A stretch of DNA of 58,404 nt from Pseudomonadota bacterium (GCA_034439715.1 JAWXAY010000052.1:1-58404); one strand, 5' to 3'; counted from the first letter of the stretch, positions 1,736 through 48,724 are shown. Notes: a model not told the origin generated them from the sequence alone. Numbers and translations are program-made.

Positions 1736-4700
1736 TTGGCCTCTGAAATTTTGCTTGTTGGAGTATTAGTGGTACGTATTCGATATTTGAAATACATAAT
1801 AACGCTATTGATTTTAAATGCCCAGTTTGTTTGGGCAGGCAGTCTATACCTTCCTTATGATAAAAATTATCGGCCTGCAAAAGAACTTATTTACCAAGGA
1901 CAGATAATCGATGCTGATACAGTAGCCCAGTTAAAAAAATCGGGCTTTGACATAAGCACACTAAATCCCGCCGAGAGCGATGTTTGGGTAAATGAGCGAC
2001 TACCTTTTACCAATGAAGAAGAGCACGATTTTCCGACAGCTGAAACACCTCGCCTGGTATTTGATTCCGTGAAGGCAGCCAACAGATTAAAAAAGAAAGA
2101 AAATACCAGTAAACCTACATCGGCAGATTCCCAAGGTGTGTTTTTAGCTCGTGTCTTGGACGGCAACAAGCCCTATCACTTGGCAATCAGTTTAAACCTC
2201 CATCCTGCATTAATGAGGGCGGCGGCTTTAAGAGCCATGGGCTACCAAATTCCGTCGCCAAAATATTATAAAAAAGTGACTGTGGTTTTTGAAAACGACT
2301 CTATTATATTGGATGAAAAAGGAAAACCTAAAATATTTGATGACACTAAAAAGCCGGACTATGAAACTCGCCGTGTCTTTAGAGATGGATTTGCTTATGG
2401 TACTAGGCGAGGCGAAAGCCGTTGGATCGTCGATTACCCCGAGGACCGATCTGAAGTTACCGTGATCGATGTCCTTTTAGAGACTGCACGTATCGAAGTT
2501 CCCACCTTTCAATGGGGTTTAATTAAGGAAAGTCACTTAGGTAATCTTAGGCCCTTGAGAGCGCTTATTGTGCCTATGACCCTGTTCGATCTTTCTGAGA
2601 GCGTTAATTTGTATTCCTGGGACTGCGGTTATGTTTTTAACGACTCTGGGGTTTTGGTTCACCCGCAGGCTACTGTTTATGGTCAAACCACGATAGATGA
2701 CGCCCGCTGGATTATGAAGAAGCTTGCCGTTTTAACTCGCGAGGATTTTTCACAAATTGTGGCTTTGGGTAAGTACCCGCCGGATATCAGCCAACTCCTT
2801 TTAGAAAAAGTTATTTCTCGGCGAAATAGTTTGGTTCAATTGTTGAAATTAAAGCCATCTGAACTTGCTGGAGCTCCTCTTGAAATTCCCTATACCACTC
2901 ATGTCAATATCGGAAATATCGTTAACGGTAAACTGATGCAAGAAAATTACCCCGGATATGCCCAGCGCTTCAGTTGGGGTGACCCAGAGTCGCCACTTAC
3001 GACTGCAGAACTGACCCGCTACGGCGCGATGATGGGACTTTCTAGTGGAATCGGCCAAGCAATTGGTGAAATAAATAAGCATCTTCAAATTTTGACCGTA
3101 GGTGATGCTGTTGATAATCACATGAGCAGTATTAAAACGAGTTTGATTAATCATTTTAAAAGTAATCCCACGCAGCCTTATGAAGGGAAAGTAAAAACTT
3201 GGGGCGGGCCGCTCTTTAATTTCGGCATAGAGGCCAGTCGAAATATCGTGACAGGTACCTACTACGGCTTGAACCAAAATCAGGTTAATAAAACTCCCCT
3301 GCAGCTCGTTGATGTTTTAGGTGCGCGAATATCTGTCGGGCATTTTTTGGCAGTAGACACCTTGAGCCCCAATTATCTCCCTACAGTTTCTGCGAATATT
3401 AATATTGGCAGAAATTATGTGCACGTTCGCCCAGTTGCAAGTGTTAAAGCGGCGATGGAAGAAGGCTGGGGAAATCTTTTCATTCCCGGATTTATGAATG
3501 GATTAGGCGACATCATGAAACTCGACGAAATCATGCAAGGTGCTGACCCAGACACCTTAAGCAAAGAGGATCTCGAAAAAAAGGCCGAAGCCCTAAGCAC
3601 GGCAGTTGCTAAATTCATGTTAGAATTTAGGGAGGGCGAAGTATTAACGATTACTGACACGCTATCGCCCGATGTTACCGGTACCATTCGCTTTCCGCTG
3701 GCAGCCTTTTTGCCGGTAAATTTTAAAGACATGAATCCTATGATCACCCTTAACACGGGTGTGAACGCGGTAATTCTTCGTCGTACTACCATTACTAGAA
3801 CGAGTGATTCTCTGCACGTCTATTTGCAAAATCTAAATAGCAAGGCACTGCGTTTTTCGATTGATGCCCGTTTTTGGATAAAAATGTTAGAGGTAGCTCG
3901 CCAGAATAAGACTGGCCACATTTCAACACGAGCCTTTATTATTTCCGCTGACCCAAAAGGGTTTAGAGATAATTTTAATTTAGCTTCGGCTATGGATGCG
4001 CTACTTAAAGATAATAATGCCGAACCACTAGAACGCAACTATTCGCCCTATAAATTAAAACACAATCTCACCTCTGAAACCACAAAAGGTGGCTTCTTGT
4101 TCTGGTCAAGATTTAATTTAAATCGCGGCCATGAGCTTAATGTCATGCCGCCTGAAGACCCCGATAAACGTTATGATCCTAAAGATTTCACGCGAACTTT
4201 ATATGCAAAAACCACAAAACAGTTTGTAGGCATGCGTTTTTTGAACACTATTTCTGATGTGGTGGGGTACCTGACAGAACGAGAAAGTTTGATCTTTGAC
4301 AATCCAGGACCAAATCCCGCGCATTCTTTTATGGGGCAGTCTGTTTTTACTGAAATGAAAACCGACGCAGAAATCACTAAGGGAGTGCTCGAAAACCCGG
4401 TCAATGCGTCTGTTCAGTCGTGGCAGGGATGGATTTTATCTCAGGCAAAACTCATGAAGATTTTAAACAGAATAGACGAGCAAGTTCGTCCCGCCGACGG
4501 TGGGATTCCTATCATACATAGAGAGGCCTTCAATATGACGGAGGACCTTCAGTTTTATGACGTGCGTGCTAGTCTACTCATACACAAAGGTGGCATCGGG
4601 AAACTAATCGATGCACTTATTGGAAGTGCCGAGAGGCCACCGATATTTATTGGAGAAAAAAGTCGACTCCGCCGGCTCGATGACAAATTTACGGCAACTG

Positions 4701-20628: not shown

Positions 20629-21671
20629 AATCGCTTTTGTTAGGGCCATTAGCTAAAGCTTTTTCGCTGGCAGTGGATGCACGCTACTGGTTGTATAAAA
20701 AAGAAATCCTTAATTCTCGGCAAGTCAGTGTGCCCGTTATTAGTGTGGGTAACATAACACTTGGTGGAACGGGAAAGACTCCGTTTGTAGACCTCATCGT
20801 TAAATATCTCACTGAGAAAAATAAGAATGTGGGATTGGTGAGTCGCGGGTATGGCGCTAAAGAAAAAAAGCGAGGTATCATCGATCAGAATCAAAAAAAC
20901 TATGGAAATTTGGCCAGTCAATTTGGTGATGAGCCGACTATGCTTCAGTGGAGGAATCCAACGCTTCATGTGGTTGTTAATCCAAATCGGTACAGGGCAT
21001 GCCAAGAGCTCATTAATAAAAAATCTGTAGAGATAATTGTCGCTGATGATGCTTTTCAACATCTCGCTCTTAAGAGAGACTTAGACCTAGTTTTATTAGA
21101 TGCAACTGAAAGCTATGAAAATTTTAAATTGCTACCACTGGGGCGAATGCGAGAAGGGTTCTCGTCACTTGAAAGGGCAAGTCTTGTTATTTTGAATAAA
21201 GCAAATTTAGTGAGCCTCGAGAAAGTTCAGAATTTAAGGGATTTGGTATTTTCTAAGTGCTCGTTTTTAAAAAATGAACCTAACCGCTGGCTAGAGGCCA
21301 ATTATGAATTTGAGGGATTTTTTCATCTCGAAACCGATAAACCATGGAGTGGGTCTTATAACGAAAAACTTCTTGTGCTCTCGGGTATTGCGAATAACCA
21401 AACATTTTTTAAGATGTGTCGGGATAAGTTTGGGAAGAGCGTGTATGGCGAAATGGGGTTTAGCGACCACTATGTTTACTCTAAAACTGATATGGCATTG
21501 ATTATGATTAGGGCAAAGGAGCTGGGGGCAGATAGGATCTTGATTACTGAAAAAGATGCCGTTAAGATTAGCCAATGGAAATCCGATATTTTCGTCTATA
21601 CAAAGCTGAAGGTGTCTTTGGTCGGAGACGGGCGAAAGCTTTATGACAAAATTGATCAGATTATTTCTTAA
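20625..21671 (+). CDS. lpxK: Tetraacyldisaccharide 4'-kinase
   Basis: SVGNITLGGTGKTP, SRGYG, GDEP, DDAFQH, PLGRMRE, TEKDAVK. Confidence 0.95.
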   Translation: MKSLLLGPLAKAFSLAVDARYWLYKKEILNSRQVSVPVISVGNITLGGTGKTPFVDLIVKYLTEKNKNVGLVSRGYGAKEKKRGIIDQNQKNYGNLASQFGDEPTMLQWRNPTLHVVVNPNRYRACQELINKKSVEIIVADDAFQHLALKRDLDLVLLDATESYENFKLLPLGRMREGFSSLERASLVILNKANLVSLEKVQNLRDLVFSKCSFLKNEPNRWLEANYEFEGFFHLETDKPWSGSYNEKLLVLSGIANNQTFFKMCRDKFGKSVYGEMGFSDHYVYSKTDMALIMIRAKELGADRILITEKDAVKISQWKSDIFVYTKLKVSLVGDGRKLYDKIDQIIS

Positions 21672-23551: not shown

Positions 23552-24748
23552 TTGTCCTCTAGGAAACCCGACCCTCCGCTAAGTACAATAGAAGATATGG
23601 CGGTTACTTCGTGTCGGTATTTTACGGGTTATAAGCCTTGCGGGAAATCTGAAACCTGTGATCAGCTGTGTCCGAGTATTAGCATTCCCAGTATTCGATT
23701 GCTGGTAATTAGTCTAGAGGCAATGGGTTCGGTACTGCGCTCAACCGTAATCTTGCCAAGTTTGAAAAGAAAATATCCCAACTGCCATATCACTTGGCTC
23801 ACTAAGAAGCCATCTGATCGTATGATACATCCCAATCCCCTTATTGACCGTATCTTTACAACGAGTGCGGAAGATTTATTAAAACTTGAGGCACTCGAGT
23901 TTGATCTCACTTTTTGTCTTGAAAAATCTCTGGAGGCGGGTGGAATTTTAAATAAAGTAAAAACAGACTTAACCTACGGATTTATAATTGATAGAAGAAC
24001 GGGAGCGGTATTACCGGCGACTAAGTCGGCTAACGAACTCTGGGAAATCGGCATCAATGACCGAAAAAAGTTTTTTGAGAATACCAAGCCTGAAGCTCAG
24101 CTGTTGACCGAGGCCCTCGAGCTGGGGCCTTACAAAAGTCAATCATACTTCTGTCCTCTGACAGAAGGGGAGCAGTGTGAAAGCGAGAAGACGAGAGGGG
24201 CATGGATTCAGGGGTATAGTTTACTCGTAGGAATTAATACTGGCTGTAGTGATTTTATTAAATATCGACGATTTTCAATTGAGTTTCAAAGAAAGTTAAT
24301 AGCGGAAATCAAAAGAAAATATAATGCACAAGTGGTGCTACTTGGTGGGCCAGAGGAAACTCTGAAAAACCAACGAATTGGTTATGGACTCGATGTTATT
24401 GAGTCGCCTACTGACAGGGGCCCTAGAGCCGGTCTTGTTAGCACCAGGGCTTGTGATATCGTGATTAGCGGAGACAGTTTAGGCATGCATATGGCCATTG
24501 CAATGGAACGCTTTACTGTGGCGTGGTTCGGTCCTACTTGTGATCAAGAGATAGACTTGTTTGGACGTGGAGTCAAAATTCGATCTGAAGCAAGTTGTGG
24601 TCCCTGCTGGAAAAGGCTATGCCAGAAATCGACCATGTGCTACGATTTGGTCTCCATGGACAAAGTCTTGGACGGAATTAAAAAGGGTATAGAGTGGAAA
24701 GATTCAATCTCGTCATCCAGACAGCGTTTATCGGAGATCTCCTTCTAA
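23552..24748 (+). CDS. GT9 family glycosyltransferase (heptosyltransferase-like)
   Basis: MGSVL..T, SGDSLGMHMAIA, FGPT, CGPC..C; Cys-rich N-terminus. Confidence 0.85.
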   Translation: MSSRKPDPPLSTIEDMAVTSCRYFTGYKPCGKSETCDQLCPSISIPSIRLLVISLEAMGSVLRSTVILPSLKRKYPNCHITWLTKKPSDRMIHPNPLIDRIFTTSAEDLLKLEALEFDLTFCLEKSLEAGGILNKVKTDLTYGFIIDRRTGAVLPATKSANELWEIGINDRKKFFENTKPEAQLLTEALELGPYKSQSYFCPLTEGEQCESEKTRGAWIQGYSLLVGINTGCSDFIKYRRFSIEFQRKLIAEIKRKYNAQVVLLGGPEETLKNQRIGYGLDVIESPTDRGPRAGLVSTRACDIVISGDSLGMHMAIAMERFTVAWFGPTCDQEIDLFGRGVKIRSEASCGPCWKRLCQKSTMCYDLVSMDKVLDGIKKGIEWKDSISSSRQRLSEISF

Positions 24749-34696: not shown

Positions 34697-36379
34697 CTAA
34701 AAATTGTGGCTTAAGAATTGACCACGTAGCTCAGTTGGATAGAGCACTAGTTTCCTAAACTGGGGGTCGCAGGTTCGATCCCTGCCGTGGTCACCAATTG
34801 CAACAGAATTCGAACCATGACCCGTAAAAAAATGTGGGGCACGGTTTTTACCCGTGCCCACATAGTAAAATAAGTTAATTTTGTCCTCATGCAGTTCCAC
34901 TTTGTGCAGTAAATTTTGAAGGACGCGAACCCTGGTTTCAGCGCTTTCGCGCTCTGACAGAGCTTTGAGGCCCTTTAGAAAGCTTGTGTAGCCCTTAAAT
35001 TCATTCGGTAAATCTTGGGCTTGATTAGACTCCATAAAGTGCCGCTGATCATGTAGTGCATCTTTATCGTGTTCTAATTTTTGTATCTGACGATAAAATA
35101 AATCAGCCGATACGTCCTTTGGCAAATCACTAATTCGATCGATCAGATTATCCATTTTTTCTTGAACAGTACGCAATCGTTTCTCGATTTGCTTAAGCTC
35201 AAAGCTTTTGTCGATTTTCTTAAAATTTCGGTGAGCGATATCAATTAAATTTCTCGCCATTTTAGGATCAGTTAAAAGTTTCTTTATCTCGGCCCACACC
35301 ATGTCTTCCAGTTTTTTACCTGGAAATCTATGCCGAATACATTTTTTCACCTCACCCAACACAGTTTGGTGTTTAGAGACTGTTCCGTGCTCGTAATAAG
35401 GCACCTTGCCGCCGTTACCCGTGGCCGACTTACCCCAAAGTGACCCACCACACTCACCGCAATAAACAAGGCCCGTGAGTAAATACGGGTAACGGTTGTA
35501 TTGGCTCCTTCGATTCCGCCGATAATTTTTACCCAGAATTTCACGAGCCCGTTTAAAAGTTTCCTCATCGATAATCCCATCCCAAACGGCTTTGGTGTCG
35601 ATCTCATTGTCGTCTTTATCTTGGTAGGTTTTTAAGCCCAAATAAGCACGATTTCTTAAAATTCTGTACACGCCATCGAAAGTGAAAAACCCCAAACGTT
35701 TATTGCTGCCCCCACCTTCACATTCCTTTTTAATTACAAAACCACGGCTATTTAAAACTTTGGCGGTTTTTGACAAAGTTCTTTCTTTTAGAAATGTTTG
35801 AAAACATTCTTTCACCAAAGCTGCACCATCAGGATCAACTTCTAAATATCCGCGCTTACCAGCCATTAGCCTGTAACCCAGCGGCACACGACCGCCATTA
35901 TATAACCCACGCTGAGAGCGGGCTAAAATTGCAGCTTTAATCCGCTGTACAGTTTGCTTTCGCTCAAACTGCGCCATATTCACTAAATTAAACATCAGCA
36001 TTTCACCAGCGGGACTTGTGGTATCGAACGATTCATTCAGACTCTGGAACGCGCATTTTAGTTTTTGCATCAGATCCCAAATATCTGAAAAGTCTTTTAT
36101 TGACCTAGATAACCTTGAAAGTTCTGTCACCATCACAAGATTTACTTTTTTGCTTTTAATGTCGCCGAGTAACCGTTGCAGCTCAGGCCTATTGGTATCT
36201 TTACCGGATCTTGCTCGGTCAACATAAACGCCTGCGACCTCATATTGACGGCCCTCTTCATTTTTATGATTAACCCAGCGCTTCAAGCGCTCCTCTTGGT
36301 TTTTGATGGACCCCTCAGGGTTATCAGCTTGTTCTTCTGTTGATACTCTGATGTAAAAGCCCACTTTAAATTTCGACAT
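34697..36379 (-). CDS. Large serine recombinase (integrated-state form, 560 aa; C-terminal tail runs antisense through the tRNA)
   Basis: YIRVST catalytic motif, SGKDTNRPELQRLL, LSRLSRS, AQFER, recombinase domain (PLGY; ILRNRAYLG), zinc ribbon LLTGLVYCGECG, coiled coil. Confidence 0.95.
   Translation of the reverse strand: MSKFKVGFYIRVSTEEQADNPEGSIKNQEERLKRWVNHKNEEGRQYEVAGVYVDRARSGKDTNRPELQRLLGDIKSKKVNLVMVTELSRLSRSIKDFSDIWDLMQKLKCAFQSLNESFDTTSPAGEMLMFNLVNMAQFERKQTVQRIKAAILARSQRGLYNGGRVPLGYRLMAGKRGYLEVDPDGAALVKECFQTFLKERTLSKTAKVLNSRGFVIKKECEGGGSNKRLGFFTFDGVYRILRNRAYLGLKTYQDKDDNEIDTKAVWDGIIDEETFKRAREILGKNYRRNRRSQYNRYPYLLTGLVYCGECGGSLWGKSATGNGGKVPYYEHGTVSKHQTVLGEVKKCIRHRFPGKKLEDMVWAEIKKLLTDPKMARNLIDIAHRNFKKIDKSFELKQIEKRLRTVQEKMDNLIDRISDLPKDVSADLFYRQIQKLEHDKDALHDQRHFMESNQAQDLPNEFKGYTSFLKGLKALSERESAETRVRVLQNLLHKVELHEDKINLFYYVGTGKNRAPHFFTGHGSNSVAIGDHGRDRTCDPQFRKLVLYPTELRGQFLSHNF
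34720..34796 (+). tRNA. tRNA-Arg (anticodon CCT)
   Basis: Full cloverleaf: GACCACG/CGTGGTC acceptor, GCTC/GAGC D arm, CTAGT-TTCCTAA-ACTGG anticodon arm, GCAGG-TTCGATC-CCTGC T arm, A-CCA end. Confidence 0.97.
34772..34819. other. attL-type junction (tRNA half + element half)
   Basis: Core TCACCAATT 34791-34799; GGTTCGA (tRNA T loop) on the left and TCGAACCATG on the right. Confidence 0.8.
34826..34863 (-). terminator. Intrinsic-terminator-like hairpin inside the LSR ORF
   Basis: Minus strand ATGTG-GGCACGG...CCGTGCC-C-CACAT followed by a T run (A7 at 34826-34832 on the plus strand). Confidence 0.6.
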
Positions 36380-36381
36380 AA

Positions 36382-36570
36382 CTATGCCGCCCTTTCTGTT
36401 TTGGTTGAAAGGCTCGAGTTATTTAATCTATCCGCGGGATTTACTTTTTTGAACTGGCAAAAGTATTTATATAAAATTCGCGCGATGATCTCAAGCCTTT
36501 CATCATATTCGTTTGCGTTAACTTCAATTTTATAAATTTCTATTTTTTCTACTTTAAATTTTTTTGGCAT
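36382..36570 (-). CDS. Small protein directly upstream of the LSR
   Basis: 62 aa; AGAGGAG RBS; stop codon 2 bp before the LSR ATG. Confidence 0.7.
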   Translation of the reverse strand: MPKKFKVEKIEIYKIEVNANEYDERLEIIARILYKYFCQFKKVNPADRLNNSSLSTKTERAA

Positions 36571-36611
36571 ATTCGTTTTCTCCTCTACAAGTTTCGATTT
36601 CAGGTTCCGGT

Positions 36612-36821
36612 CCTATTAAGTCACAGTTCGCCGTTTTTAATTTTCTTCATAAGTTATAGTTTTGATTTATATTTTCTAAATTGCGTTTGTTCAGTAACTC
36701 CTCTTGTGTGTGATAAAGTTATACCTATGTTGGTAGGGTAGTTATATCTTGGTTGGTACGGTGGTTCTTGGGGTGGGTAATAGGTTTTGTGATCAAGCCC
36801 CGCGTGGCCCTATTAAGTCAC
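36612..36821. repeat. 13-bp direct repeat CCTATTAAGTCAC x2
   Basis: Exact copies at 36612-36624 and 36809-36821 upstream of the LSR operon. Confidence 0.75.
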
Positions 36822-36998
36822 GTCGGGAAGTTCGATCAAGTATTTTTAAGTTTATGATTTCATTTGTGATTGTCGACGCTGCAATTATTCAGCAATTCGT
36901 AAGATTCGGAGAGTATTGTGGGCATATTGCTACAATATTGCGGTCACATTGCTACGTTGTTCTTGCTACCGGCCAGGGCATTGAAGAACTGAACTAAA

Positions 36999-37310
36999 TT
37001 ACGCCACATCAATTTTAAAATGCGCATTGGGAAAAAGCTCACTTAAATATTTCACTAAGCGATCAAGCGTGAACTCTTCGATGTTGTAATTTAACACTTT
37101 ACTCATCAAAGCTTCATCAATGCCAATTTTTTTTGCCAACTCTTTTTGGCTAATGGCATTTTCGTTTTTATAAACAACGAACCTCTCACAAAGTTTGTAT
37201 TTCATTTCATCAACAGGGCTTGCGTCTTTCGGCAGAAGTCTAGCGGCTTGTCCGTGATCTAGTCTTTTTCTGACCTCATCCAATTTTTCTTTCGACGGAA
37301 ATTTTGCCAT
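36999..37310 (-). CDS. XRE-family HTH protein (antitoxin-like)
   Basis: SQKELAKKIGIDEALMSKVL HTH, FTLDRLV; downstream of a toxin-sized ORF. Confidence 0.85.
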   Translation of the reverse strand: MAKFPSKEKLDEVRKRLDHGQAARLLPKDASPVDEMKYKLCERFVVYKNENAISQKELAKKIGIDEALMSKVLNYNIEEFTLDRLVKYLSELFPNAHFKIDVA

Positions 37311-37316
37311 AAATTT

Positions 37317-37612
37317 TTACCTCTTAACTCTAAACGCGTTAATCACACCTAAAAAATCATCCGTAATACAAATAAGCAGCACGAGTCGATAGGGTTTATC
37401 GTCGTGATAGACAGGCTCAACCCTAAAGTAACGGAACTCACCATCGATCTCTTCAACCGGGAAACTGCCACCATCTAGTTCTTTACAAGCTCTAGGATAA
37501 TCTCGTCGGTTAAGTCGGGGTGTTTGATCTTATAATGCTGATCAATGATTACCCGGTTTACGTCCTGCCTATTAACAACCAACTGAAGTTTATACTCAGG
37601 CCGCTCACCTAT
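37317..37612 (-). pseudogene. Disrupted toxin-like partner of the XRE protein
   Basis: Frame A (ATA)GERPEYKLQL...IIDQHYKIKHPDLTDEIILELVK continues after a 1-bp frameshift near 37483 as ELDGGSFPVEE...KPYRLVLLICITDDFLGVINAFRVKR*; start appears as ATA. Confidence 0.65.
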
Positions 37613-38097
37613 GCAATGAGTCTATCATTAAATTGACGAATTTGTCAATTTAGAAGTTAAACCTATTCCTTGGGTCTTTTTTGCCAGTCCAAAAGGTCAC
37701 AATCTTTGGCAATTTAACGCCCAAGGTTTTCACCTCGCGTTTAGGGGCGAAAAAAATTATTCCCCTCATAATAGTCAAAACAATAAGTCCCAGATTCGTC
37801 ATATCGCATTTGAGTAATTTACCAACTAAAATGATAGTTCAAAAATAGTGAGTATGTTTCATCGCTTATAAGAATAAAAAATTTATTTTCAGTACGAGTT
37901 TTCGCGGGAGTTTTTTAGTAATATTTAATTACTGCTATCACCACTCAGCGCCTTCATGAACAACAAATAAATTAGAAAAGCCAGCATGTCGCAAATCATC
38001 TTGGCTAGATGCGCACGACAGACGAGTGTTTGGTAGCGCGGAAGAAGAATATTGTGGCCAGACTGAATTTCCATCTGACCATCTTTGCGAACCGATA

Positions 38098-38982
38098 TTA
38101 TTTCTTGAGGAGATTTTGAATATTCCTCATACAAAAGTTTCTGCTTTCGTTTAAGTCCATTTTTTTTAGGTTACACCAATCTCTAAATGAAAAGCTCACG
38201 TTAGACTCGCTGCCAACGGCCACCCAGCTTGCCTCTCTATAGGCTTCGTTCAGCGCCTCCCAAGCCTGCAATGCAGGTCCAATGTCCGTGATCGGGCCAT
38301 TACAATTTTTAAAAAAGAGATCTTGAGCATCATTAATTTTCTTTTCGATAGGAGCTTTCGCTTGTTCTTCTCTCTTAATGGACGAGAACGTTTGATAATT
38401 TCCAAATCCATATTTGGATACTTTACTGCTGAAAGCCATTTCTTCTAAATCGCCTACTGCAGTCAAAACCCGCTTCAACCCTCGAACACTTGCGGGCGGA
38501 ATTAAATCTTCAGTTTTGCGTTCCTTATTTAGTAGTAGCCGTCTGCCCTGAACGAGTTCGTGAAGAATTAGCTGGTCCTTAGCTACAACTTTAAATTTTG
38601 CTTCTTCAATAAAAATATCATTATCATCCTGACAAGCGCCAGCTGCTGTTTCAACTTGAATATGGCTTTTTGGATCCTCGCAAAGAATTTCGAAAGGTAC
38701 CAAGTGCCATGTCTTTTCTGCGAGAGGTACGCGGAGATCTTTTGCCAACTCTGGCAATTTTTGTTCAATTTGAATTAGTATTTCCTCTACAGATTTAAAA
38801 AAGCCTTCTTTTTCTGGATGGATTATTTTTCCCTGCTCCAGATCATCTATCAAAATCCAGTGACCGTTTACCTTGCCGTAGAAACCGCCACCAGGACCAG
38901 TTCCTCCCGCGAAGGCAAAATGGGGCGCCACTGTCAAAGTGATCGCCAGAAAGATTTGTTTCAAATTCAATAAGGCTTTCAT
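38098..38982 (-). CDS. Secreted hypothetical protein (AFA-GGTGPGGG N-terminus)
   Basis: Signal peptide, Gly-rich motif after the cleavage site, LILHELVQ (HExxH-like but lacking the second His); GGAG RBS. Confidence 0.75.
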   Translation of the reverse strand: MKALLNLKQIFLAITLTVAPHFAFAGGTGPGGGFYGKVNGHWILIDDLEQGKIIHPEKEGFFKSVEEILIQIEQKLPELAKDLRVPLAEKTWHLVPFEILCEDPKSHIQVETAAGACQDDNDIFIEEAKFKVVAKDQLILHELVQGRRLLLNKERKTEDLIPPASVRGLKRVLTAVGDLEEMAFSSKVSKYGFGNYQTFSSIKREEQAKAPIEKKINDAQDLFFKNCNGPITDIGPALQAWEALNEAYREASWVAVGSESNVSFSFRDWCNLKKMDLNESRNFCMRNIQNLLKK

Positions 38983-39003
38983 AAAAACTCCTAAGTTATG
39001 TTA

Positions 39004-39019
39004 TTCAATCCGTATGCCA
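39004..39019 (-). promoter_or_regulatory. Possible sigma-54 promoter variant
   Basis: Minus strand TGGCATACGGATTGAA (GG-N10-GA instead of GC). Confidence 0.4.
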
Positions 39020-39096
39020 ATATAGCGCGATGCGCTAAATGTTTCTAGATCTATTTGGTATAAAGATAAACGAATTTTTTACCGATTAGTAAAACA

Positions 39097-39918
39097 ATGA
39101 CCAAACCTTTAGATTTATTTAGTTTTCACGGCTATCGAAACTACCTCAAAGCATGGATTGAGCACGCCCGCGAAAACCAAACCTCAAATCTCTCGCGCTT
39201 AGCCGAAGCAATTGGGGTTAACCCCAGTTTCCTGGCTCATGTTCAATCGGGTTTAAAAAATTTGAGCTTTGAACAGGCGGCGCTTATTTCAAAAATATTT
39301 AATCATACAAATCTAGAGCGCGAGTATTTCTTCGCGCTGGTTCAAATTGAACGCGCTGGCACTCAGTTATTAAAAACATATTGGGAATCAAAAAAAGATG
39401 CCATTCTTGAAGAAAGATCTCGAGTTAAATCACGAGTCGGAAAACATCTAGAATTAACTTCAGAGGATCGCGCGATATTTTATTCCAGCTGGATTTATGT
39501 AGCGGTTTTCGTAGCAACTGCAATTAATGACGGGCAAACCCTTGATCAAATTGCTTCTCGTTTTTCTCTAGATCGCTCAAAGGCCGAAGAAATTTTAAAT
39601 TTTCTTGAGAGCAACGGTATTTGTGGACGAGAAAACTCTATCTATAAAATGGCTCAAAATTCAGTGTATATCTCAAATGACTCGCCATTGGTGGTTAAGC
39701 ATCACACTAACTGGCGCATGAAAGGAATTCAAAAAATGGATTCGCGGCAAAAAAATGAACTCTTTTATACTTCGCCGATGTCGATATCGGCTTCTGATTT
39801 TGAAAGAATTCGCGAATTACTCTTAAAAAGTATTGAGTCCTCTCAAAAAATTGCCCACGCCTCAGCAGCAGAAGAAGTCTTTTGCCTGAATCTGGATTTT
39901 TTTAAAGTAGCCACTTAG
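39097..39918 (+). CDS. TIGR02147/DUF4423-like HTH protein
   Basis: YRNYLK, LAEAIGV.PSFL..V..G.KNLS.EQA, FYSSWIY, HH.NWR, LNLDFF pattern; divergent from a secreted-protein gene. Confidence 0.8.
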   Translation: MTKPLDLFSFHGYRNYLKAWIEHARENQTSNLSRLAEAIGVNPSFLAHVQSGLKNLSFEQAALISKIFNHTNLEREYFFALVQIERAGTQLLKTYWESKKDAILEERSRVKSRVGKHLELTSEDRAIFYSSWIYVAVFVATAINDGQTLDQIASRFSLDRSKAEEILNFLESNGICGRENSIYKMAQNSVYISNDSPLVVKHHTNWRMKGIQKMDSRQKNELFYTSPMSISASDFERIRELLLKSIESSQKIAHASAAEEVFCLNLDFFKVAT

Positions 39919-40256
39919 CAATACCCTCAACATATGAATTCTAACCTTATGGAGTTTTGTAGCTGCTTTTGTTAACTGACGCTTTTCAGGTCAATTGGTG
40001 GGACCCGGTAAAACTGGCCTAAAATAAGCCCTTTAATGGCCTAAACTCTTTACCAGCTTCAAAAGTCGAATGAGGGTAAGAGCAATTTACGGCTTTAAAA
40101 CGTTTGCTATTGGACGAATCCAAAAGATTTACGATGGAAAGGCTGCTTTTCCGTCGAACCGGGACCTGAAGATCTTGAGGCACAAAGAAAAAGCATCTTC
40201 TAAAACGGATGGATTTAGAAAACTTCTTGTGCTCCAATGAACACATGGAGGTTCTG

Positions 40257-40832
40257 ATGCGTCTAATCACACTTTCTTTCGTGCTACTAATAAATTCATT
40301 TGGATATGCTAAACCAAATTGTTTTTTAAATGTAAGTCTCCCACTCAGTTACGTCATTGAAGGACCGATGGACTGGAAGGTTGGCCAACAAACGACTCAT
40401 CAAGCTACTCTGACCGACTCTACCGGCAGCCAACTTGTTTACTATTTTGAGGAAACGGTGAAGTCTGACGTTCAAGAAGGTCTATGGGTACAAACCATTC
40501 AATCGTCTGATTATGAAGAACAGAAAGATGTCTTTGACATTCTTTACGACAAAAAAACCGGCCAAGTTTTAAAATATATTATTAACGGCGTAAACTGCTC
40601 AATTCCCAGAAAAGAAAAATACAGAGTTCTTGAGACCCACTCAGAAAATGTGACTGTGAAGGCAGGAGCGTTTGAAAGTACCTACACCAAGGCAGAAGCG
40701 AGAAGCACTGGCTTTATGTTTGAAAATTGGATAAGTCCAAAAATTCCAATGACGGGTGTCGTGAAATCCAAATCATTTGAAACTGAGTTCAAAATTCCTG
40801 TCGAAGTAGAACTTTTAAGCTTTAAAATGTGA
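40257..40832 (+). CDS. Secreted hypothetical protein
   Basis: ATG after GGAGG; signal peptide; DWKVG, VTVKAGAFES, WISPKIPMTGVVK. Confidence 0.75.
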   Translation: MRLITLSFVLLINSFGYAKPNCFLNVSLPLSYVIEGPMDWKVGQQTTHQATLTDSTGSQLVYYFEETVKSDVQEGLWVQTIQSSDYEEQKDVFDILYDKKTGQVLKYIINGVNCSIPRKEKYRVLETHSENVTVKAGAFESTYTKAEARSTGFMFENWISPKIPMTGVVKSKSFETEFKIPVEVELLSFKM

Positions 40833-40956
40833 ATGGCGCTCGGGGCCGCTTAAACCACTTCGATAATTGCCAAAAGCTGGTGATAATTTTGCCGGCTTCA
40901 ATATCACCAAAATTATCTCCGTCTCGAAACACCCGTTCAACTTGTCAAAAAAAAGC

Positions 40957-41127
40957 TCAACGACTCGTTAGCTGATGCGTAAACTCCGAATAGCTAATCA
41001 TCTGTTTTTGCGCGTTCGCAGCTTTGTTCATCATCACTAAAGTGAAAACTTTTAGTTCGCCAACCAAGGCAAGATAGATCGCAAATTTAACAACAGACGT
41101 ATAAAATTGTAAAACCCCATTAATCAT
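40957..41127 (-). CDS. 56-aa small hydrophobic protein (below ORF-track cutoff)
   Basis: MINGVLQFYTSVVKFAIYLALVGELKVFTLVMMNKAANAQKQMISYSEFTHQLTSR; AAGGGG RBS; ATG overlaps the end of the HTH module by 8 nt. Confidence 0.6.
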   Translation of the reverse strand: MINGVLQFYTSVVKFAIYLALVGELKVFTLVMMNKAANAQKQMISYSEFTHQLTSR

Positions 41128-41329
41128 ATTGCCCCTTTCGTTTTAAGCGTTTTAAACGGCCCTTCACTTGTTCTAAAGTCAAATTCAAGTGCTCTGCGAT
41201 CTTCGCAATAGGCCACCGCTTAACCCATCTTAGTATTGCCAGCTCTGACAGGTTAAGCCTTTCTTTTTCCCACTGGATTCGATAATCTCGAACCACGGTG
41301 CATGGTTCGTATTGTATGGCGTGACCTTC
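41120..41329 (-). other. Orphan 69-codon HTH-like module: excised-state C-terminus of the LSR
   Basis: EGHAIQYEPCTVVRDYRIQWEKERLNLSELAILRWVKRWPIAKIAEHLNLTLEQVKGRLKRLKRKGQYD*; same frame across the ATT GGT GA core as the LSR; no upstream start codon. Confidence 0.75.
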
Positions 41330-41352
41330 ACCAATTTGGATAAAGTGCGAAC
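41301..41352. other. attR-type junction
   Basis: CATGGTTCG 41301-41309, core TCACCAATT 41328-41336, CGAAC 41348-41352. Confidence 0.78.
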
Positions 41353-41537
41353 ACCAGGCCGGCGCATTGCCGGTCCATTTCTTGAAAAGTCTCGTTTTTG
41401 ACTAATTTTGGCAAACCGTAAAGTTATTTGACACAATATGCGTTTTAGGAATTTGGATCGCTGTTCTTCTCTATTCGCGTTGCTATGTGAATGAGGGATC
41501 AAATCACTGAAGAGAGTTTGTATGGCAATGGGTTAAC

Positions 41538-41553
41538 TGGCACGCGAATTGCT
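41538..41553 (+). promoter_or_regulatory. Sigma-54 promoter
   Basis: TGGCACGCGAATTGCT, a consensus match 25 bp upstream of ORF 41579. Confidence 0.75.
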
Positions 41554-41578
41554 CTTTTAGGGAATTTCTGGAGGTTCT

Positions 41579-42235
41579 ATGAGTCGCGTATTTATCGCCC
41601 TAACTACGTTTTTTATATCGTCCGTATCATTAGCGGTTTCTCCACTTTATGAGAATTTAGCCAAAATCTTACCGGCTGGGTGGAGTCTTCCCGATGGCAA
41701 TCAACGAACGAAGGTAGGAGATTTTATGTTAAAAGAATTCCCCTACGAACGAGGTTACCGTATGAAAGATCCTTACAATGGGCCTGTCGAGGGGTATAAG
41801 ATTGTCACCTCACATAATGCTAAATCAGGTCGTAGGTATGCCATTTCGGTTATAATCGCAGATGGACTTGTTTTTGAATTAGGAATGAATGCGATGGGTA
41901 TAGATAAGGAAACTTATTTGAATGATCGAGAGGTTCTATGGCCAGAAAGAAGAGAGATCAAAATTCCGGCTGTTTTTAAAATAGATATGTCCGTCCCAAA
42001 GGGGAGTGATTTTAATAGGAATTTAACAGACCAATTTACCAAAGAGGCCTTGCATATGTCAGGGGTCCGATTTTCGCGTGAGGCACCAGAACACTTTGTG
42101 GCTGGATTTAGAGATATAAAACAGGTACGCACGTTTTTTTCAAATCTAGATGGTCTCTTTAAGAGTACGGCAAAAAAATTGGAAAGAAAACTCGTCTTAC
42201 GGTCTCGGACGTGTATGGGCCAGTTTGGATCATAA
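41579..42235 (+). CDS. Secreted hypothetical protein
   Basis: GGAGG RBS, signal peptide (SVSLA), C-terminal C...F motif. Confidence 0.75.
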   Translation: MSRVFIALTTFFISSVSLAVSPLYENLAKILPAGWSLPDGNQRTKVGDFMLKEFPYERGYRMKDPYNGPVEGYKIVTSHNAKSGRRYAISVIIADGLVFELGMNAMGIDKETYLNDREVLWPERREIKIPAVFKIDMSVPKGSDFNRNLTDQFTKEALHMSGVRFSREAPEHFVAGFRDIKQVRTFFSNLDGLFKSTAKKLERKLVLRSRTCMGQFGS

Positions 42236-42328
42236 TTTCAAACCGCGAATTCCAAGATAAAATCTTTTGAAAACTTCGGAACACGAGATTGATATGGATA
42301 TTATTAAAAAAGACTTGGAGTAACTTCA

Positions 42329-43378
42329 GTGTCCGCAATCAATTTGACATTTCTGCTAATAGTTCTTGTTCATCAACACAGCCTCGCCTCTGAAATATCC
42401 CCTCGAAGATGCGCAGATGTTTTTTCGCCTGTACTGATGCTAAATAGACCCGTTACTATACCCGATTCCTATGAACTACCCAACGGACGAAAACACTCTA
42501 AGTACAAAAAATTTATTTCTGAAATTTCGGAACTACGCGATAAAATTAACCTCCTGACAGAAGGCAAACTAAATCAGGTAGAGTCAGTAATTTACCCCGC
42601 AGCAGGCTTTGACTCTGGCTACCCCTTTTTGATGGCACCAAAGGCAAAGGTGGTAATCGCTCTTGATGATAATCCATTTATAACCCAGAAAAATTTTAAG
42701 CTCGAAACTTCACTAAAACCTGTGCAACCCTATGGGTATGCATCATATATGCATTTCTCGGCTATAGTAAGCTTGCCCGGATTGGCAAACCAAATTGTAG
42801 CCAATATCAAAGGACTCGACAAAAACATAAGAATTCGTTCTGTCGAGGCATTTATGATCCAAGGAGAATCTAAATATATGGAGGCTCAGGACGAGCACAT
42901 ACCTATTCATGGTTTGGTGAAATTTGATCGGGGTGACGGGACTCCAGAGCAGATCTATATTCACGTGAATAGATTTTTTTCTTCTCTTGAACCCTCTACC
43001 GTTACTATATTGCAAAGTTCGTGGTGGAGCGGAATGATCTCAAGTAGACGAATGGCTCTACTCTACAAAGGGGCAGCAGGAATAACAGGAGAATCGACAA
43101 TAGATGCGTTAGAGCAAATTTTTGCAAAAACCCCCGGCTCCGTTTATGTTGCCGCGAAAAATGAGGCTACCGTTAGATTTCTGAGCCGTTCAGACCATGT
43201 TCTAGTTCCCTTAGAAGAATCTAAAAGAGGATATAAAGAAGTTCTCATGCCTTATTTTCAAGATCCTAAATTAAAGAAATATAAAGTTCGTGCTAGGTTA
43301 GGCTACAATTCCATTGGCGGCAGGAAGGGTTGGGTCGACATCGTTATCGTACCTGAGAACTCCGATATCTTTGAATAA
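42329..43378 (+). CDS. Secreted hypothetical protein
   Basis: GGAG RBS, signal peptide, CADVF motif after cleavage, YPAAGFD. Confidence 0.7.
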   Translation: MSAINLTFLLIVLVHQHSLASEISPRRCADVFSPVLMLNRPVTIPDSYELPNGRKHSKYKKFISEISELRDKINLLTEGKLNQVESVIYPAAGFDSGYPFLMAPKAKVVIALDDNPFITQKNFKLETSLKPVQPYGYASYMHFSAIVSLPGLANQIVANIKGLDKNIRIRSVEAFMIQGESKYMEAQDEHIPIHGLVKFDRGDGTPEQIYIHVNRFFSSLEPSTVTILQSSWWSGMISSRRMALLYKGAAGITGESTIDALEQIFAKTPGSVYVAAKNEATVRFLSRSDHVLVPLEESKRGYKEVLMPYFQDPKLKKYKVRARLGYNSIGGRKGWVDIVIVPENSDIFE

Positions 43379-45556: not shown

Positions 45557-47344
45557 ATGCATCCAAATCCAGCACCAACACATTCACGTTTTAAACGGAC
45601 TATAATTTCCATCATAAGTTTAGCGTTTATGATGACCGGATTTGATTTTTCAAATGTGAACCAAAAAAATGCGCAGGGCCTTGGTTGCTCAGATTCGGGT
45701 GGTAGCAAAAATAATTTTGATAATCCCCCGACATTTCCCAGCGAAGAAGGCTATGGCCAAGTCGCCATTGACGTACAAGAATCCGACACGCACTTACAGT
45801 ATGGAGAGTTTGCAGAAGTTGAACTTTATCTAAAAGGTGAATATGAAACTCCGGTTGTTTGGCAAGTGCCCGAATATTCGGGTCTGCCTCCAGGCCTTGA
45901 GATGGTCGATAACAATAACGGGATTTTACTCTTAAAAGGGGAGCCTCGCTTCGTTGATCAGTGGTGTTTTATTATTTCAGCATGGACCCAAGATCAAAAG
46001 CAGGGATATCGAGAAATTTGTATAAATGCCGACGCCCCCCTCGATACGCAGCCTCTACCCACCTTCAGTACCGATCGCTACCTCGATGACGCTTATATAA
46101 ATCTAAATTATTCAGCAAACATTTCGTGGCAAAATCCGGCAAACCATTTTCGTGCTGATATCAGCCGCGAATCATTTCCTCAGGGCTTCAATATAGATGT
46201 TCAAGATACTTCAATATTACTCAATGGCACATTTACTGAAGCCAAAAATCATGTCTTTTGGATTCACCTTCAATCTGACGATAATCTCACCGAGGTTTAT
46301 AAACAGTTTCAGATTACGGTTTCTGATGAAGTGCAAACTCCTCCGCGTAGTTGTCCCGATGGTTATTACTACGACACAGTTTTGGGATATTGCGTACAGA
46401 ACCAGTTAGAGACCTGTCCTAATGGCACATTCTACGATCCCGTTTCGAATCTTTGCGTTCAGTATCCCCAACCGCCCCCGCAAGTTTATTGCGGCGAAGG
46501 TTATTATTATGATCACTACTCAAATCAATGCGTACGAATAGGCTACCCACGTTGTCCACTTAATTCACGCTGGGATCCTTACTACAATCGCTGTGAGCCT
46601 ACCTATCATCAGTGCTCGTGGGGTTACCGCTGGTCACATATTTATAATCAATGTATTCCCGTCGATAATCGCGTGAATTGCGGCTACAACGAGTATTGGG
46701 ATTCTTATTACAAAGCTTGTTTGCCAACGCGCTCACAAGTTTGTGGTTACGATGAATATTGGGACCGTGCAATGGGCCGTTGTGTTTCGACACATCGACG
46801 TGATTATTGTGGGTACGACAGATATTGGGATCCTTACTTAAATCGCTGTGTACCGAGAGATAATCGACGATATTGTGGACCCGGTTCGCGCTGGGATTAT
46901 GATTTGAATCGCTGTGTGAGGGTGATTGATTATAAATATTGTCCCGTTGGCTATCACTGGTCGTGGCAGTTGGGTCGTTGCGTACCGAATACTATAGTAA
47001 CTCGCCCTCCCAGGCCATACCCAGTGCCGCGACCCATTCCGCCTCGTCCTGTTCCCGGTCCAAGACCCGGGCCGCGTCCACGACCCACTCCGCCGCCGCG
47101 ACCACCACCTGATCGTCCACGTCCACCGCGACCGGTACCACCGCAGCCAAATCCTCGCCCAGTACCGAATCCTCGTCCGGTACCACCGCGGCCAACGCCC
47201 CCTCGTCCGACACCGCCACCTGATAGACCGGCGCCAGCACCACGTCCAACACCACCGCCTGATCGTCCGCGACCGACTCCGCCACCTGATAGACCGGCGC
47301 CACCTCCGTGTCGACATCCTGATCCCAGCAGGTGTCCACGCTAA
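45557..47344 (+). CDS. Surface/secreted protein: Ig-like domains + Cys-rich repeats + Pro/Arg tail
   Basis: LPPGL/FPQGF Ig-like strands, ~10 C..(G/N/D)..(W/Y)D.....C repeats, ~110-aa PR-rich C-terminus. Confidence 0.8.
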   Translation: MHPNPAPTHSRFKRTIISIISLAFMMTGFDFSNVNQKNAQGLGCSDSGGSKNNFDNPPTFPSEEGYGQVAIDVQESDTHLQYGEFAEVELYLKGEYETPVVWQVPEYSGLPPGLEMVDNNNGILLLKGEPRFVDQWCFIISAWTQDQKQGYREICINADAPLDTQPLPTFSTDRYLDDAYINLNYSANISWQNPANHFRADISRESFPQGFNIDVQDTSILLNGTFTEAKNHVFWIHLQSDDNLTEVYKQFQITVSDEVQTPPRSCPDGYYYDTVLGYCVQNQLETCPNGTFYDPVSNLCVQYPQPPPQVYCGEGYYYDHYSNQCVRIGYPRCPLNSRWDPYYNRCEPTYHQCSWGYRWSHIYNQCIPVDNRVNCGYNEYWDSYYKACLPTRSQVCGYDEYWDRAMGRCVSTHRRDYCGYDRYWDPYLNRCVPRDNRRYCGPGSRWDYDLNRCVRVIDYKYCPVGYHWSWQLGRCVPNTIVTRPPRPYPVPRPIPPRPVPGPRPGPRPRPTPPPRPPPDRPRPPRPVPPQPNPRPVPNPRPVPPRPTPPRPTPPPDRPAPAPRPTPPPDRPRPTPPPDRPAPPPCRHPDPSRCPR

Positions 47345-47396
47345 GAGTGGGAATAAGAGTTGCGAAAATAATATTTTATTTTTGACGGTATAATTG

Positions 47397-47429
47397 CTGC
47401 CTTACCAGAAATGGTAGGGCAGTTTTATT
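47397..47429 (+). terminator. Intrinsic terminator between convergent genes
   Basis: CTGCCTTACCA-GAAA-TGGTAGGGCAG then TTTT. Confidence 0.75.
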
Positions 47430-47446
47430 AAAGCTAAAGTATAAAT

Positions 47447-48724
47447 TTATCTTGAAGGATTATTAGAGCGTTGAGACCAGTTTTTGTTACCTGAGGGTTG
47501 AGGCCTTCTATGACCGCCGCCGCCTCCACCATGGCGTCCTCTGCCTCCGCGACCACGGGGAACGGGAGGAGGCGCGATCTGTCCTGGAGGTGGAAGAAAG
47601 GGATGATGGTCTATTATGGGAACCTTTAAGCCAATTGTCTTTTCAATATCCCGAAGATTAATTCGCTCGCTAATATCACAAAAGGCAATAGCCACACCAG
47701 CTTTACCTGCTCTTGCAGTTCTGCCAATGCGATGCACGTAACTCTCTGGCACATCTGGCAAATCAAAATTAAAAACGTGACTGAGGCCCGGAATGTCTAT
47801 TCCCCGAGCGGCAATATCAGTGGCTACGAGTGCCTTTACCTGGCCTAATTTAAAGCCTTCGAGAGCCTTCATTCTTGCGGCCTGAGACTTATTGCCATGA
47901 ATAGCCGAGGATCGAATGCCTGAGGCCTCTAAAAACTGACAGACTTTATTAGCGCCATGTTTAGTGCGAGTAAAAATCAGCGCCTGTTTTATATTTTGGG
48001 TTTGCATTAAATGCTTTAAAAGTTTCGACTTATTTTTTTGGTCCACAAAGACAACTTTTTGATCCACTTTTTCCACTGTTGTCGCTTGAGGAGTGACCGA
48101 AACTTTTACGGGATTCGTTAACAATTTATGGGCGAGCGACGCAATATCAGAAGGCATAGTGGCCGAAAACATAAGTGTCTGGCGCTGGGGAGGAAGCCTC
48201 GCTACTATTTTTCGAACATCGTTGATGAAGCCCATATCGAGCATGCGATCAGCCTCATCCAGTACAAAAATCTCGAGCTCATCAAGATAGGCTACTTTTT
48301 GATTCATCAAATCTAAAAGTCGGCCAGGAGTTGCAATCAAAACGTCCTGACCTAGTGCCATGGCCTTTACTTGTGGCTTTTGACTAACTCCCCCATAAAT
48401 CACAGTGCTAAAAAACTCAGAATTTTTGCCGTAGGTTTCAAAACTCTGATGAATTTGCGCCGCCAATTCTCGAGTGGGGGTAAGTATTAAAGTGCGACAG
48501 CGAAAGTTTTTTACGCGTCGAGGGTTGCGGCCAATAAAATCTAAGATCGGAATCGCAAAGGCTGCGGTCTTACCCGTTCCCGTTTGGGCAATTCCGAGAA
48601 GGTCACGACCGGCAAGTAATTGTGGAATGGCCTGTGCCTGAATCGGAGTGGGTTTAGTGTATCCAGCATCTTTAATGGCGGTTAAAATAGGATCCAAAAC
48701 ATTTAATGTCGAAAAGTCTGTCAT
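47447..48724 (-). CDS. DEAD-box RNA helicase (RhlE-like)
   Basis: Q motif, AQTGTGKT, PTRELA, DEAD, SAT, ARGID, HRIGRTAR; RGG-rich tail. Confidence 0.95.
   Translation of the reverse strand: MTDFSTLNVLDPILTAIKDAGYTKPTPIQAQAIPQLLAGRDLLGIAQTGTGKTAAFAIPILDFIGRNPRRVKNFRCRTLILTPTRELAAQIHQSFETYGKNSEFFSTVIYGGVSQKPQVKAMALGQDVLIATPGRLLDLMNQKVAYLDELEIFVLDEADRMLDMGFINDVRKIVARLPPQRQTLMFSATMPSDIASLAHKLLTNPVKVSVTPQATTVEKVDQKVVFVDQKNKSKLLKHLMQTQNIKQALIFTRTKHGANKVCQFLEASGIRSSAIHGNKSQAARMKALEGFKLGQVKALVATDIAARGIDIPGLSHVFNFDLPDVPESYVHRIGRTARAGKAGVAIAFCDISERINLRDIEKTIGLKVPIIDHHPFLPPPGQIAPPPVPRGRGGRGRHGGGGGGHRRPQPSGNKNWSQRSNNPSR

Follow-up and report, generated by a model that had tools for sequence, protein, structure and literature searches.

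A large serine recombinase gene containing its own putative attachment site and the in-frame C-terminal module stranded at the far end of a tRNA-Arg island

The recombinase gene, the tRNA and the attachment sites

The DNA analysed here, referred to as the window, is a whole stretch of 58,404 nucleotides from a Pseudomonadota bacterium (GCA_034439715.1, JAWXAY010000052.1:1-58404). It contains a 6.5-kb element adjoining a tRNA-Arg(CCT) gene and carrying a large serine recombinase (LSR) gene whose 3' part reads antisense through the tRNA; at the opposite end of the element, 69 codons that keep the phase of the LSR frame encode a predicted helix-turn-helix (HTH)-like module, and the same layout recurs in related loci (positions are given in Table 1). 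The Pfam matches of the LSR are PF00239 (3.5e-33), PF07508 (1.4e-13) and PF13408 (6.2e-11), and its domain order, a Recombinase domain followed by a zinc β-ribbon with an inserted coiled-coil, is that of LSRs. R11, V12, S13 and T14, of the resolvase catalytic domain with its catalytic serine, are invariant among 32 homologues, as are C307, C310 and C347 in the LSR homologue alignment. In the AlphaFold2 (AF2) model, long helices at residues 392-417 and 426-450, corresponding to the coiled-coil insert, lie between elements of the zinc-ribbon domain (ZD). The 560-aa form is modelled as ordered to about residue 510, with a predicted local distance difference test (pLDDT) below 50 for residues 511-560, which comprise the linker, the peptide encoded by the phage-type attachment (att) site attP and the tRNA-antisense tail.

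The original prediction, made from the sequence alone, had the LSR frame crossing the att core after codon 529 and then reading 31 residues through the antisense strand of the whole tRNA-Arg; the coordinates agree, with the minus-strand frame (...S V A I G D H G R D R T C D...) spanning the entire tRNA after G529. A 9-bp core, TCACCAATT, lies at 34791-34799 and again, at a spacing of 6,537 bp, at 41328-41336. In the same phase the distal copy reads I G E G H A I Q Y E P ... Q Y D*, with 69 open codons after the glycine, as had been claimed, and the module has no start upstream of the core: the in-frame stop is a TAG at 41402-41404, ATG, GTG and TTG are absent between it and the core, and the first candidate start is the internal GTG of a 58-aa open reading frame (ORF) at 41120..41296. 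By itself the 9-mer repeat is near chance and not significant (3 copies in the window vs 0.84 expected; at least three in 8 of 100 shuffles). It is raised above chance by an inverted repeat, I9 (26 nt, 77%; 34800-34825 and 41295-41320), directly inside both cores, and by the same anatomy in related loci.

The B half-site consists of the tRNA-Arg(CCT) T-loop GGTTCGA (from 34772) and the acceptor/CCA end. On the plus strand the P' arm ends with CGAACC, i.e., GGTTCG (codons G-S) in the LSR sense, and the P arm begins with GGTTCG. Read in the LSR sense, the inner arm adjoining the tRNA opens with GGTTCG 24 nt ahead of the central GA (TC on the plus strand), and the inner arm of the far end closes with CGAACC 24 nt past it, so that joining both arms would give a 50-bp dyad (GGTTCG…core…CGAACC) as long as a serine-integrase attP. 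In the tRNA this motif corresponds to the T-loop (tRNA nt 52-56) and stands 5 bp closer, at 19 nt from the centre; the junction alignment places GGTTCG at -21, and GAACC (LSR sense) at +25..+29 in the P arm and at +20..+24 in the tRNA arm. The excerpts used from Rutherford 2013 (PMC3783163) give an attP half-site of 25 bp and a ZD motif located 5 bp nearer the centre in attB. The short pseudo-palindromic attP (~50 bp) with an attB motif shift of ~5 bp, typical of LSRs, is therefore found here as well. The B' arm shows no conservation across loci, and the terminator-like hairpin just outside attR is possibly the displaced terminator of the tRNA gene.

Table 1. Positions of the features of the element and its edges in the window
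Feature	Position	Strand	Parts or basis
LSR ORF, 560 aa	34697..36379	-	
LSR core, codons 1-529	34793..36379	-	Resolvase, Recombinase and Zn-ribbon domains with coiled-coil, then linker
Integrated-form tail, 31 tRNA-antisense codons + stop	34697..34792	-	sequence; pLDDT
tRNA-Arg(CCT), integration target	34720..34796	+	ARAGORN; Rfam tRNA, 67.5 bits
attL	34772..34816		B arm 34772-34790, central dinucleotide TC 34791-34792, P' arm 34793-34816; sequence, I9, anchored junction alignment
attR	41304..41353		P arm 41304-41327, central TC 41328-41329, B' arm 41330-41353; sequence, I9, junction alignment
Orphan module, 69 codons	41123..41329	-	stop 41120-41122; P-arm-encoded linker (..YEP), strand, predicted three-helix HTH
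Intrinsic-terminator-like hairpin and T-run in LSR ORF	34827..34859	-	hairpin 34859-34837, ~20 nt upstream of P' arm
Terminator-like hairpin just outside attR	41357..41385	+	
62-aa ORF abutting LSR start	36382..36570	-	no family match (Pfam, PHROGs)
XRE-like HTH	36999..37310	-	Pfam
294-aa protein	38098..38982	-	no family match (Pfam, PHROGs)
DUF4423 regulator	39097..39918	+	Pfam
207-aa ORF	40209..40832	+	
56-aa ORF	40957..41127	-	no family match (Pfam, PHROGs)

The same layout in related loci

Among 7999 scored candidates, 1527 LSR homologues were found at E<=1e-20, mostly from Bdellovibrionota where the source is named, and many of them end in a tRNA-antisense-like tail right after a conserved GSNxLT(N/F/I)G motif. 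An alignment query retrieved 80 related loci on genome contigs, a single-protein query having given none, and a minus-strand tRNA lies at the LSR 3' end in 50 of the 80. Wherever a locus has both the tRNA and a match to the motif pattern (35 of 35), the last glycine codon falls exactly on the tRNA CC(A); the tRNAs concerned are those for Leu, Arg, Glu, Val, Met, Lys and Ala, and the tails after that glycine measure 5 to 67 aa (5 aa in 20 of the 35). The family seems to target tRNA 3' ends through a T-loop look-alike in attP. The enzyme would find tRNA genes because the outer attP half-site motif GGTTCG is the tRNA T-loop sequence, and this would explain how one family uses many tRNA species.

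A profile of the module, built on a 71-aa stretch (I-G plus the 69 codons), detected 28 copies in 24 of the 80 loci and the window, all on the LSR strand and none on the other, most of them located 3.5-11 kb upstream of the LSR. Each of the 28 copies has G-x7-E in frame, usually followed by P, after GGT or GGC. Junction cores were anchored on the tRNA CCA end and on G-x7-E, longest-common-substring cores being chance matches in L044, L073, L048 and one row of L096; in the compared junction pairs, the tRNA-side core is found again in the bases past the glycine codon. Of the 16 elements having both ends, 15 carry the LSR frame through the shared GGT, L051 with its broken LSR being the one that does not, so that across the family excision would yield an in-frame LSR-module fusion. 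A search for other tRNA-inserted LSRs with an in-frame orphan module had been proposed as a check on the original prediction, and 14 of the 15 loci besides the window are of this kind. Judged from these comparisons, the LSR architecture with a stranded module is supported and general in the family.

Codon usage at the P' arm was surveyed in the 53 of 81 sequences that matched the motif pattern. The glycine codon is GGT in 45 of 45 (background 28%) and the serine codon TCG in 48 of 53 (background 17%), and given this bias the GSN..LT..G motif would mostly reflect, at the protein level, the DNA sequence of the P' arm, just as the E-P that follows the core (GAA CCN) reflects the mirror motif of the P arm. 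A TTG ACA stretch, almost fixed in the 53 sequences 7-12 nt before the shared GGT, is probably a contact of the recombinase domain. TTGACA was also considered as a -35 box and rejected, no -10-like sequence being present at the expected spacing in the one junction sequence inspected (L061).

At three other loci (L071 ~1795-1821, L103 ~3512-3538, L074 ~727-753) and in the window, where 41330-41353 carries (G)GTTCG exactly in the P' register and reads C S H F I Q I G in frame, the B' arm is P'-like. Such arms resemble an earlier LSR's 3' end in a decayed state, a hint that successive elements accumulate at one tRNA and that DNA of an older island may extend rightward past 41336. In P0121, a module copy from another sample that is 93% identical, the sequence diverges exactly upstream of the core, and a deletion joins the module in frame to a homologue of the 56-aa ORF. 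These observations bear on the alternative that the 9-bp repeat is a chance match with the true right boundary elsewhere, which we regard as very improbable: the 9-mer alone is within chance, no empty site was found and older island DNA could continue rightward from the P'-like B' arm, yet the inverted arms lie exactly at both cores, the junction geometry is the same in every module copy, and P0121 diverges precisely at the core.

Contiguous LSR-HTH homologues had likewise been proposed as a check, and several were found: P0005 (658 aa), P0213 (631 aa) and P0215 (630 aa) have the module after a GSN-type motif, and so do an ORF of L099 and an LSR fragment of L053. An alignment-based search for longer proteins with the module found none, which is weak evidence. 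L053 (925-11725) and L099 (3922-15972) are tandem arrays in which the inner LSR or LSR fragment reads into the module of its tRNA-proximal neighbour, so that the chromosome can encode a full-length enzyme even when no element is excised.

The genome from which the window derives holds further relatives. A second, distant LSR (C102:941-2819, L113; 31% identity, 604 aa) terminates within a tRNA-Ala(GGC), ~12 nt in from the tRNA 3' end, in a phase differing from that of the LSR family of the tRNA-Arg element. Two truncated module remnants lie 2.4 kb apart on contig C26, at 21352-21483 (L121) and 23807-23932 (L122); one of them holds an internal TGA, no tRNA is present in the stretches examined, and both are probably relics of former elements. 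In three genomes of the same family, G001-G003 (L029, L030, L031), a sigma-54-type regulator and the tRNA-Arg(CCT) are kept and the DNA after the tRNA differs in each, which marks the tRNA-Arg(CCT) end as a variable hotspot.

The C-terminal module and the proposed consequences of losing it

The ratio of nonsynonymous to synonymous substitution rates (dN/dS) of the module is 0.06-0.27 in the 13 closest pairs (dS 0.12-0.80), with a median of 0.31 over 139 pairs, indicating that beyond the P arm the module is under purifying selection as a protein; lack of coding conservation had been named as grounds for rejecting the original prediction. A strand plus a three-helix HTH-like fold is predicted: the AF2 model (77 sequences) has three helices at a mean pLDDT of 72, and the best PDB matches of the fold search are HTH domains of DeoR/SorC and sigma region 4 (TM 0.59/0.76, E 0.087). 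The earlier assignment of the 69 residues as HTH-like thus agrees with the modelled helices and finds no match above threshold in Pfam, where all HTH matches fall below the cut-offs (best Sigma70_r4, 6.1e-4), or in Foldseek.

Complex prediction with LSR residues 295-529 and the module gave a score of 0.76 (best control 0.01), a mark reached by 116 of 157 solved complexes and by 2 of 215 mismatched pairs; across runs, with author-built alignments as input, contact agreement was at least 66% and partner pLDDT at least 67. The predicted contacts connect module residues 9-22 and 24, which lie upstream of the HTH, with LSR residues 349-364, 378-389, 454-459, 492 and 498-513. In the AF2 model the contacted parts are the terminal hairpin (498-513), a helix (354-370) and the segments flanking the coiled-coil (378-389 and 454-459). 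The module is thereby predicted to dock on the ZD at the base of the coiled-coil, a place that we infer to resemble the binding site of recombination directionality factors (RDFs) in solved LSRs.

The docking and the reading frames also bear on whether the module is simply a small HTH gene in its own right, encoding a regulator or directionality factor translated from an internal start, whose phase with the LSR is a side effect of attP constraints. Stand-alone small-protein calls are numerous, with 91 representatives matching the module at E<=0.001, nearly all of 51-212 aa, and in the window the internal GTG does give a 58-aa ORF. These calls nevertheless retain the G-x7-E-P junction peptide, the window has no start codon from the upstream stop to the core, the phase with the LSR is kept in all but one element, contiguous fusions exist, and the residues making the best-predicted contact precede the GTG. 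An own start codon in homologues, the other ground named for rejection, was a mixed result, in-frame starts before the core being absent in 10 of 17 locus rows. Taken together, an independent gene appears improbable.

We consider it fairly probable that the 6.5-kb element was integrated by its own LSR with attP inside the LSR gene, that the module rejoins the enzyme only on excision or in tandem, and that its loss alters regulation. The element would have inserted at the CCA end of tRNA-Arg(CCT), the ~50-bp attP lying within the 3' part of the LSR gene, in the disordered linker between the ZD and the C-terminal strand-plus-HTH domain, so that integration would cut the gene. The chromosomal copy would then encode the core 1-529 and a meaningless tRNA-antisense tail, with the last 69 codons left start-less at the far end, and a 598-aa enzyme would be restored in frame only on the excised circle or at the junction with a tandem neighbour. 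The full-length form would be the integration-proficient enzyme, in which the C-terminal strand packs against the ZD next to the hinge of the coiled-coil and the HTH provides an additional DNA contact; loss of the module on integration would change the regulation of the enzyme, and the reaction would therefore not simply be reversed. The comparison bears out the structural part of the original prediction, i.e., attP in the LSR gene, the antisense tail and the in-frame HTH module. The state-dependent switch proposed with it is still an inference, a plausible one for which the predicted ZD docking is the sole functional hint.

A more specific version, possible but held only tentatively, casts the module as a directionality device. 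In the full-length enzyme the strand would occupy the RDF surface and lock the enzyme in integration, and the chromosomal copy would be free to excise, with or without its 62-aa neighbour; whether the integrase gene is whole or split would then determine the direction of the reaction, and the family would read the universal tRNA T-loop plus CCA end as its attB half-site.

The layout could instead be real and neutral, attP overlapping the gene for compactness or linkage, with the core 1-529 sufficient, the module dispensable and no switch involved. The integrated form keeps its catalytic, recombinase, zinc-ribbon and coiled-coil parts whole, the integrated tails have no conservation of their own, and for the Dehalococcoides recombinase DsiB the excerpts used from McMurdie et al. 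2011 offer a trivial explanation (PMC3146451). The terminator-like hairpin inside the LSR ORF may moreover limit the expression of any C-terminus. It has the lowest minimum free energy (MFE) among 49 windows of the ORF, and at 53 related loci the internal hairpin is top-ranked by MFE in 11 and has a rank <=1 in 18, a T-run of at least 5 following it in 29. However, the module is under purifying selection, the spacing of its in-frame G-x7-E-P is fixed in all copies and it is predicted to dock on the ZD, whereas a dispensable and usually silent tail should decay; we hold neutrality to be rather unlikely. A GC-rich hairpin with a T-run, placed within the variable linker shortly before the P' arm, is also seen in L037, L043, L047, L056, L064, L075, L092, L096, L104 and others, several copies having an A-run ahead and a T-run behind. 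It may shield the tRNA from antisense transcription or be a source of stop-less LSR mRNAs.

Integration might also inactivate the LSR, as for SSV1, the truncated form being unstable or inactive and the island trapped unless a tandem module or a second copy supplies full-length enzyme. The predicted pairing of the strand with the terminal ZD hairpin, the arrays L053 and L099, in which the inner LSR regains a module, and the frequency of decayed remnants (the C26 fragments and the P'-like B' arms of L071, L103, L074 and the window) are all consistent with such a trap. On the other hand, the LSR genes adjoining tRNAs are mostly intact frames, suggesting continuing selection in the integrated state, and other solved LSR zinc-ribbon domains are not known to end with a comparable strand. 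Inactivation by integration is therefore judged unlikely.

For the favoured account, in which module loss alters the regulation of an enzyme integrated through an attP in its own gene, excision is the step that would restore the fusion, and several observations weigh against this account. Contigs of four metagenome runs (depth 2-6x) show integrated junctions only, X7 contigs bridging attL and attR and an X8 contig bridging attR, a search with no power against rare excision; the circle junction proposed earlier was not seen in them, and the 598-aa fusion would be in frame. A metagenome scan with the B' flank returned a single contig of the same integrated layout (99.98% identity), and the right flank 41337-42400 was present in 0 of 60 related genomes, with no empty allele. 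Both contiguous forms that could be placed on DNA, L099 and L053, are tandem-array junctions and not circles. The dyad centre is TC in the window and a palindromic GC in the tRNA-Leu relatives; a palindromic centre is unusual for LSRs, so the placement of the crossover may be one base off. For the module, no Foldseek match was found at E<=0.001 and the fold matches are weak; its docking is a prediction only, made from our own alignments, and the strand may simply belong to the ZD fold. The internal hairpin might end most transcripts before either C-terminus is encoded. Finally, Replic_Relax (PF13814; ~280 aa), found upstream of a small ORF and the LSR in 11 of 16 islands (L047 8781-9626, L061 8738-9598, L066 8724-9554 and 8 more), is missing from the window island, which may therefore be defective.

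Island contents and comparison with known systems

Related islands span 3.5-11 kb, and the LSR is present in 16 of 16. An ORF of 62-64 aa abuts the LSR in 11 of the 16, including the window, and may encode a directionality factor or regulator. Pfam and PHROGs revealed no phage structural or conjugation genes in the island, and none of the seven other island ORFs scanned is a second resolvase-domain ORF. The element looks like a small integrative and possibly mobilizable one. Outside it, the region 46500-47600 of the window reaches a GC content of 55% vs ~41% around it, with imperfect short direct repeats (families D1-D6), and may encode a repetitive Gly/Arg/Pro-rich protein.

Serine integrases are prized since their direction is set by a simple protein switch, and how it is biased in nature is still being worked out structurally. 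The LSRs described here form a large, little-described family that appears to alter its own domain make-up with each recombination event. If the module affects direction, it would be a natural counterpart of engineered integrase-RDF fusions and would open a way to integrases with self-limited activity. The layout also misleads gene callers, which annotate the recombinases as over-long, with a tRNA-antisense tail, and list the orphan modules as 'small HTH proteins'.

State-dependent C-termini and split integrases have precedents among tyrosine recombinases. In the phages BPs and Brujita, attP reportedly lies within a coding gene whose C-terminus depends on the integration state, forming a genetic switch (Broussard et al. 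2013); there a repressor is reported to be split by a tyrosine integrase and a degradation tag to be swapped, whereas here the exchanged part is a predicted folded domain. The archaeal integrase gene of the SSV1 type is said to be partitioned by its own integration, being split near the middle and inactivated. That enzyme is an archaeal tyrosine recombinase, and the window element would shed only a C-terminal domain. In phage Mx8, according to the excerpts used, attP lies in the integrase coding sequence (IntP/IntX), and integration makes a recombinant gene with a new 3' end and alters the properties of the enzyme (PMC6070905); the excerpted Islander paper lists Mx8 and SSV among integrases extending across attP (PMC4383910). 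The LSR of the window is like Mx8 in that attP lies inside its own integrase gene and the enzyme would be changed rather than destroyed. Mx8 differs in being a phage with a tyrosine recombinase and long arm-type att sites, in contrast to a 6.5-kb island, and since the window protein is a serine recombinase it is like Mx8 and SSV1 in layout and not a member of their group.

With the phage LSRs A118/LI, SPbeta, phiC31 and Bxb1 it shares the domain order, the coiled-coil within the ZD, the ~50-bp pseudo-palindromic attP and the 25-bp half-sites, as given in the excerpts of PMC3783163 and PMC11722253, and the predicted docking surface resembles the place where the SPbeta RDF binds (DBD2 plus inter-hinge segments; PMC11722253). 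Those phages, however, have an attP external to the int ORF, insert into a protein gene or intergenic site and have their direction set by a separate RDF protein, whereas the window element has attP within the ORF and is directed at a tRNA end, and a C-terminal domain would come and go with the DNA state. The excerpted Islander paper, published in 2014, states that serine-family integrases were not known to target tRNA genes (PMC4383910), and a literature search found no paper describing a tRNA-targeting LSR family with a conserved stranded domain.

A precedent among serine recombinases is DsiB, the CcrB-like enzyme of the ssrA-specific genomic islands of Dehalococcoides, for which the layout has already been remarked on. 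According to the excerpts used from McMurdie et al. 2011, the DsiB ORF always overlaps attL, its stop being located only outside the island, tandem islands occur, and the authors suggest that full function may require the circle or a neighbouring island (PMC3146451). Like the LSR of the window, DsiB (~540 aa) is a serine recombinase at the island edge that reads antisense into the end of a tRNA-like gene. Its target is the tmRNA (ssrA) with a 20-bp repeat, whereas here it is the tRNA CCA end with a core of 6-11 bp, and it has a companion small serine recombinase, DsiA, whose counterpart was not among the seven other island ORFs scanned in the window. The excerpts describe no conserved C-terminal domain for DsiB, whereas the stranded part of the present family is a selected, predicted strand-plus-HTH domain, and the two systems are likened by layout only.

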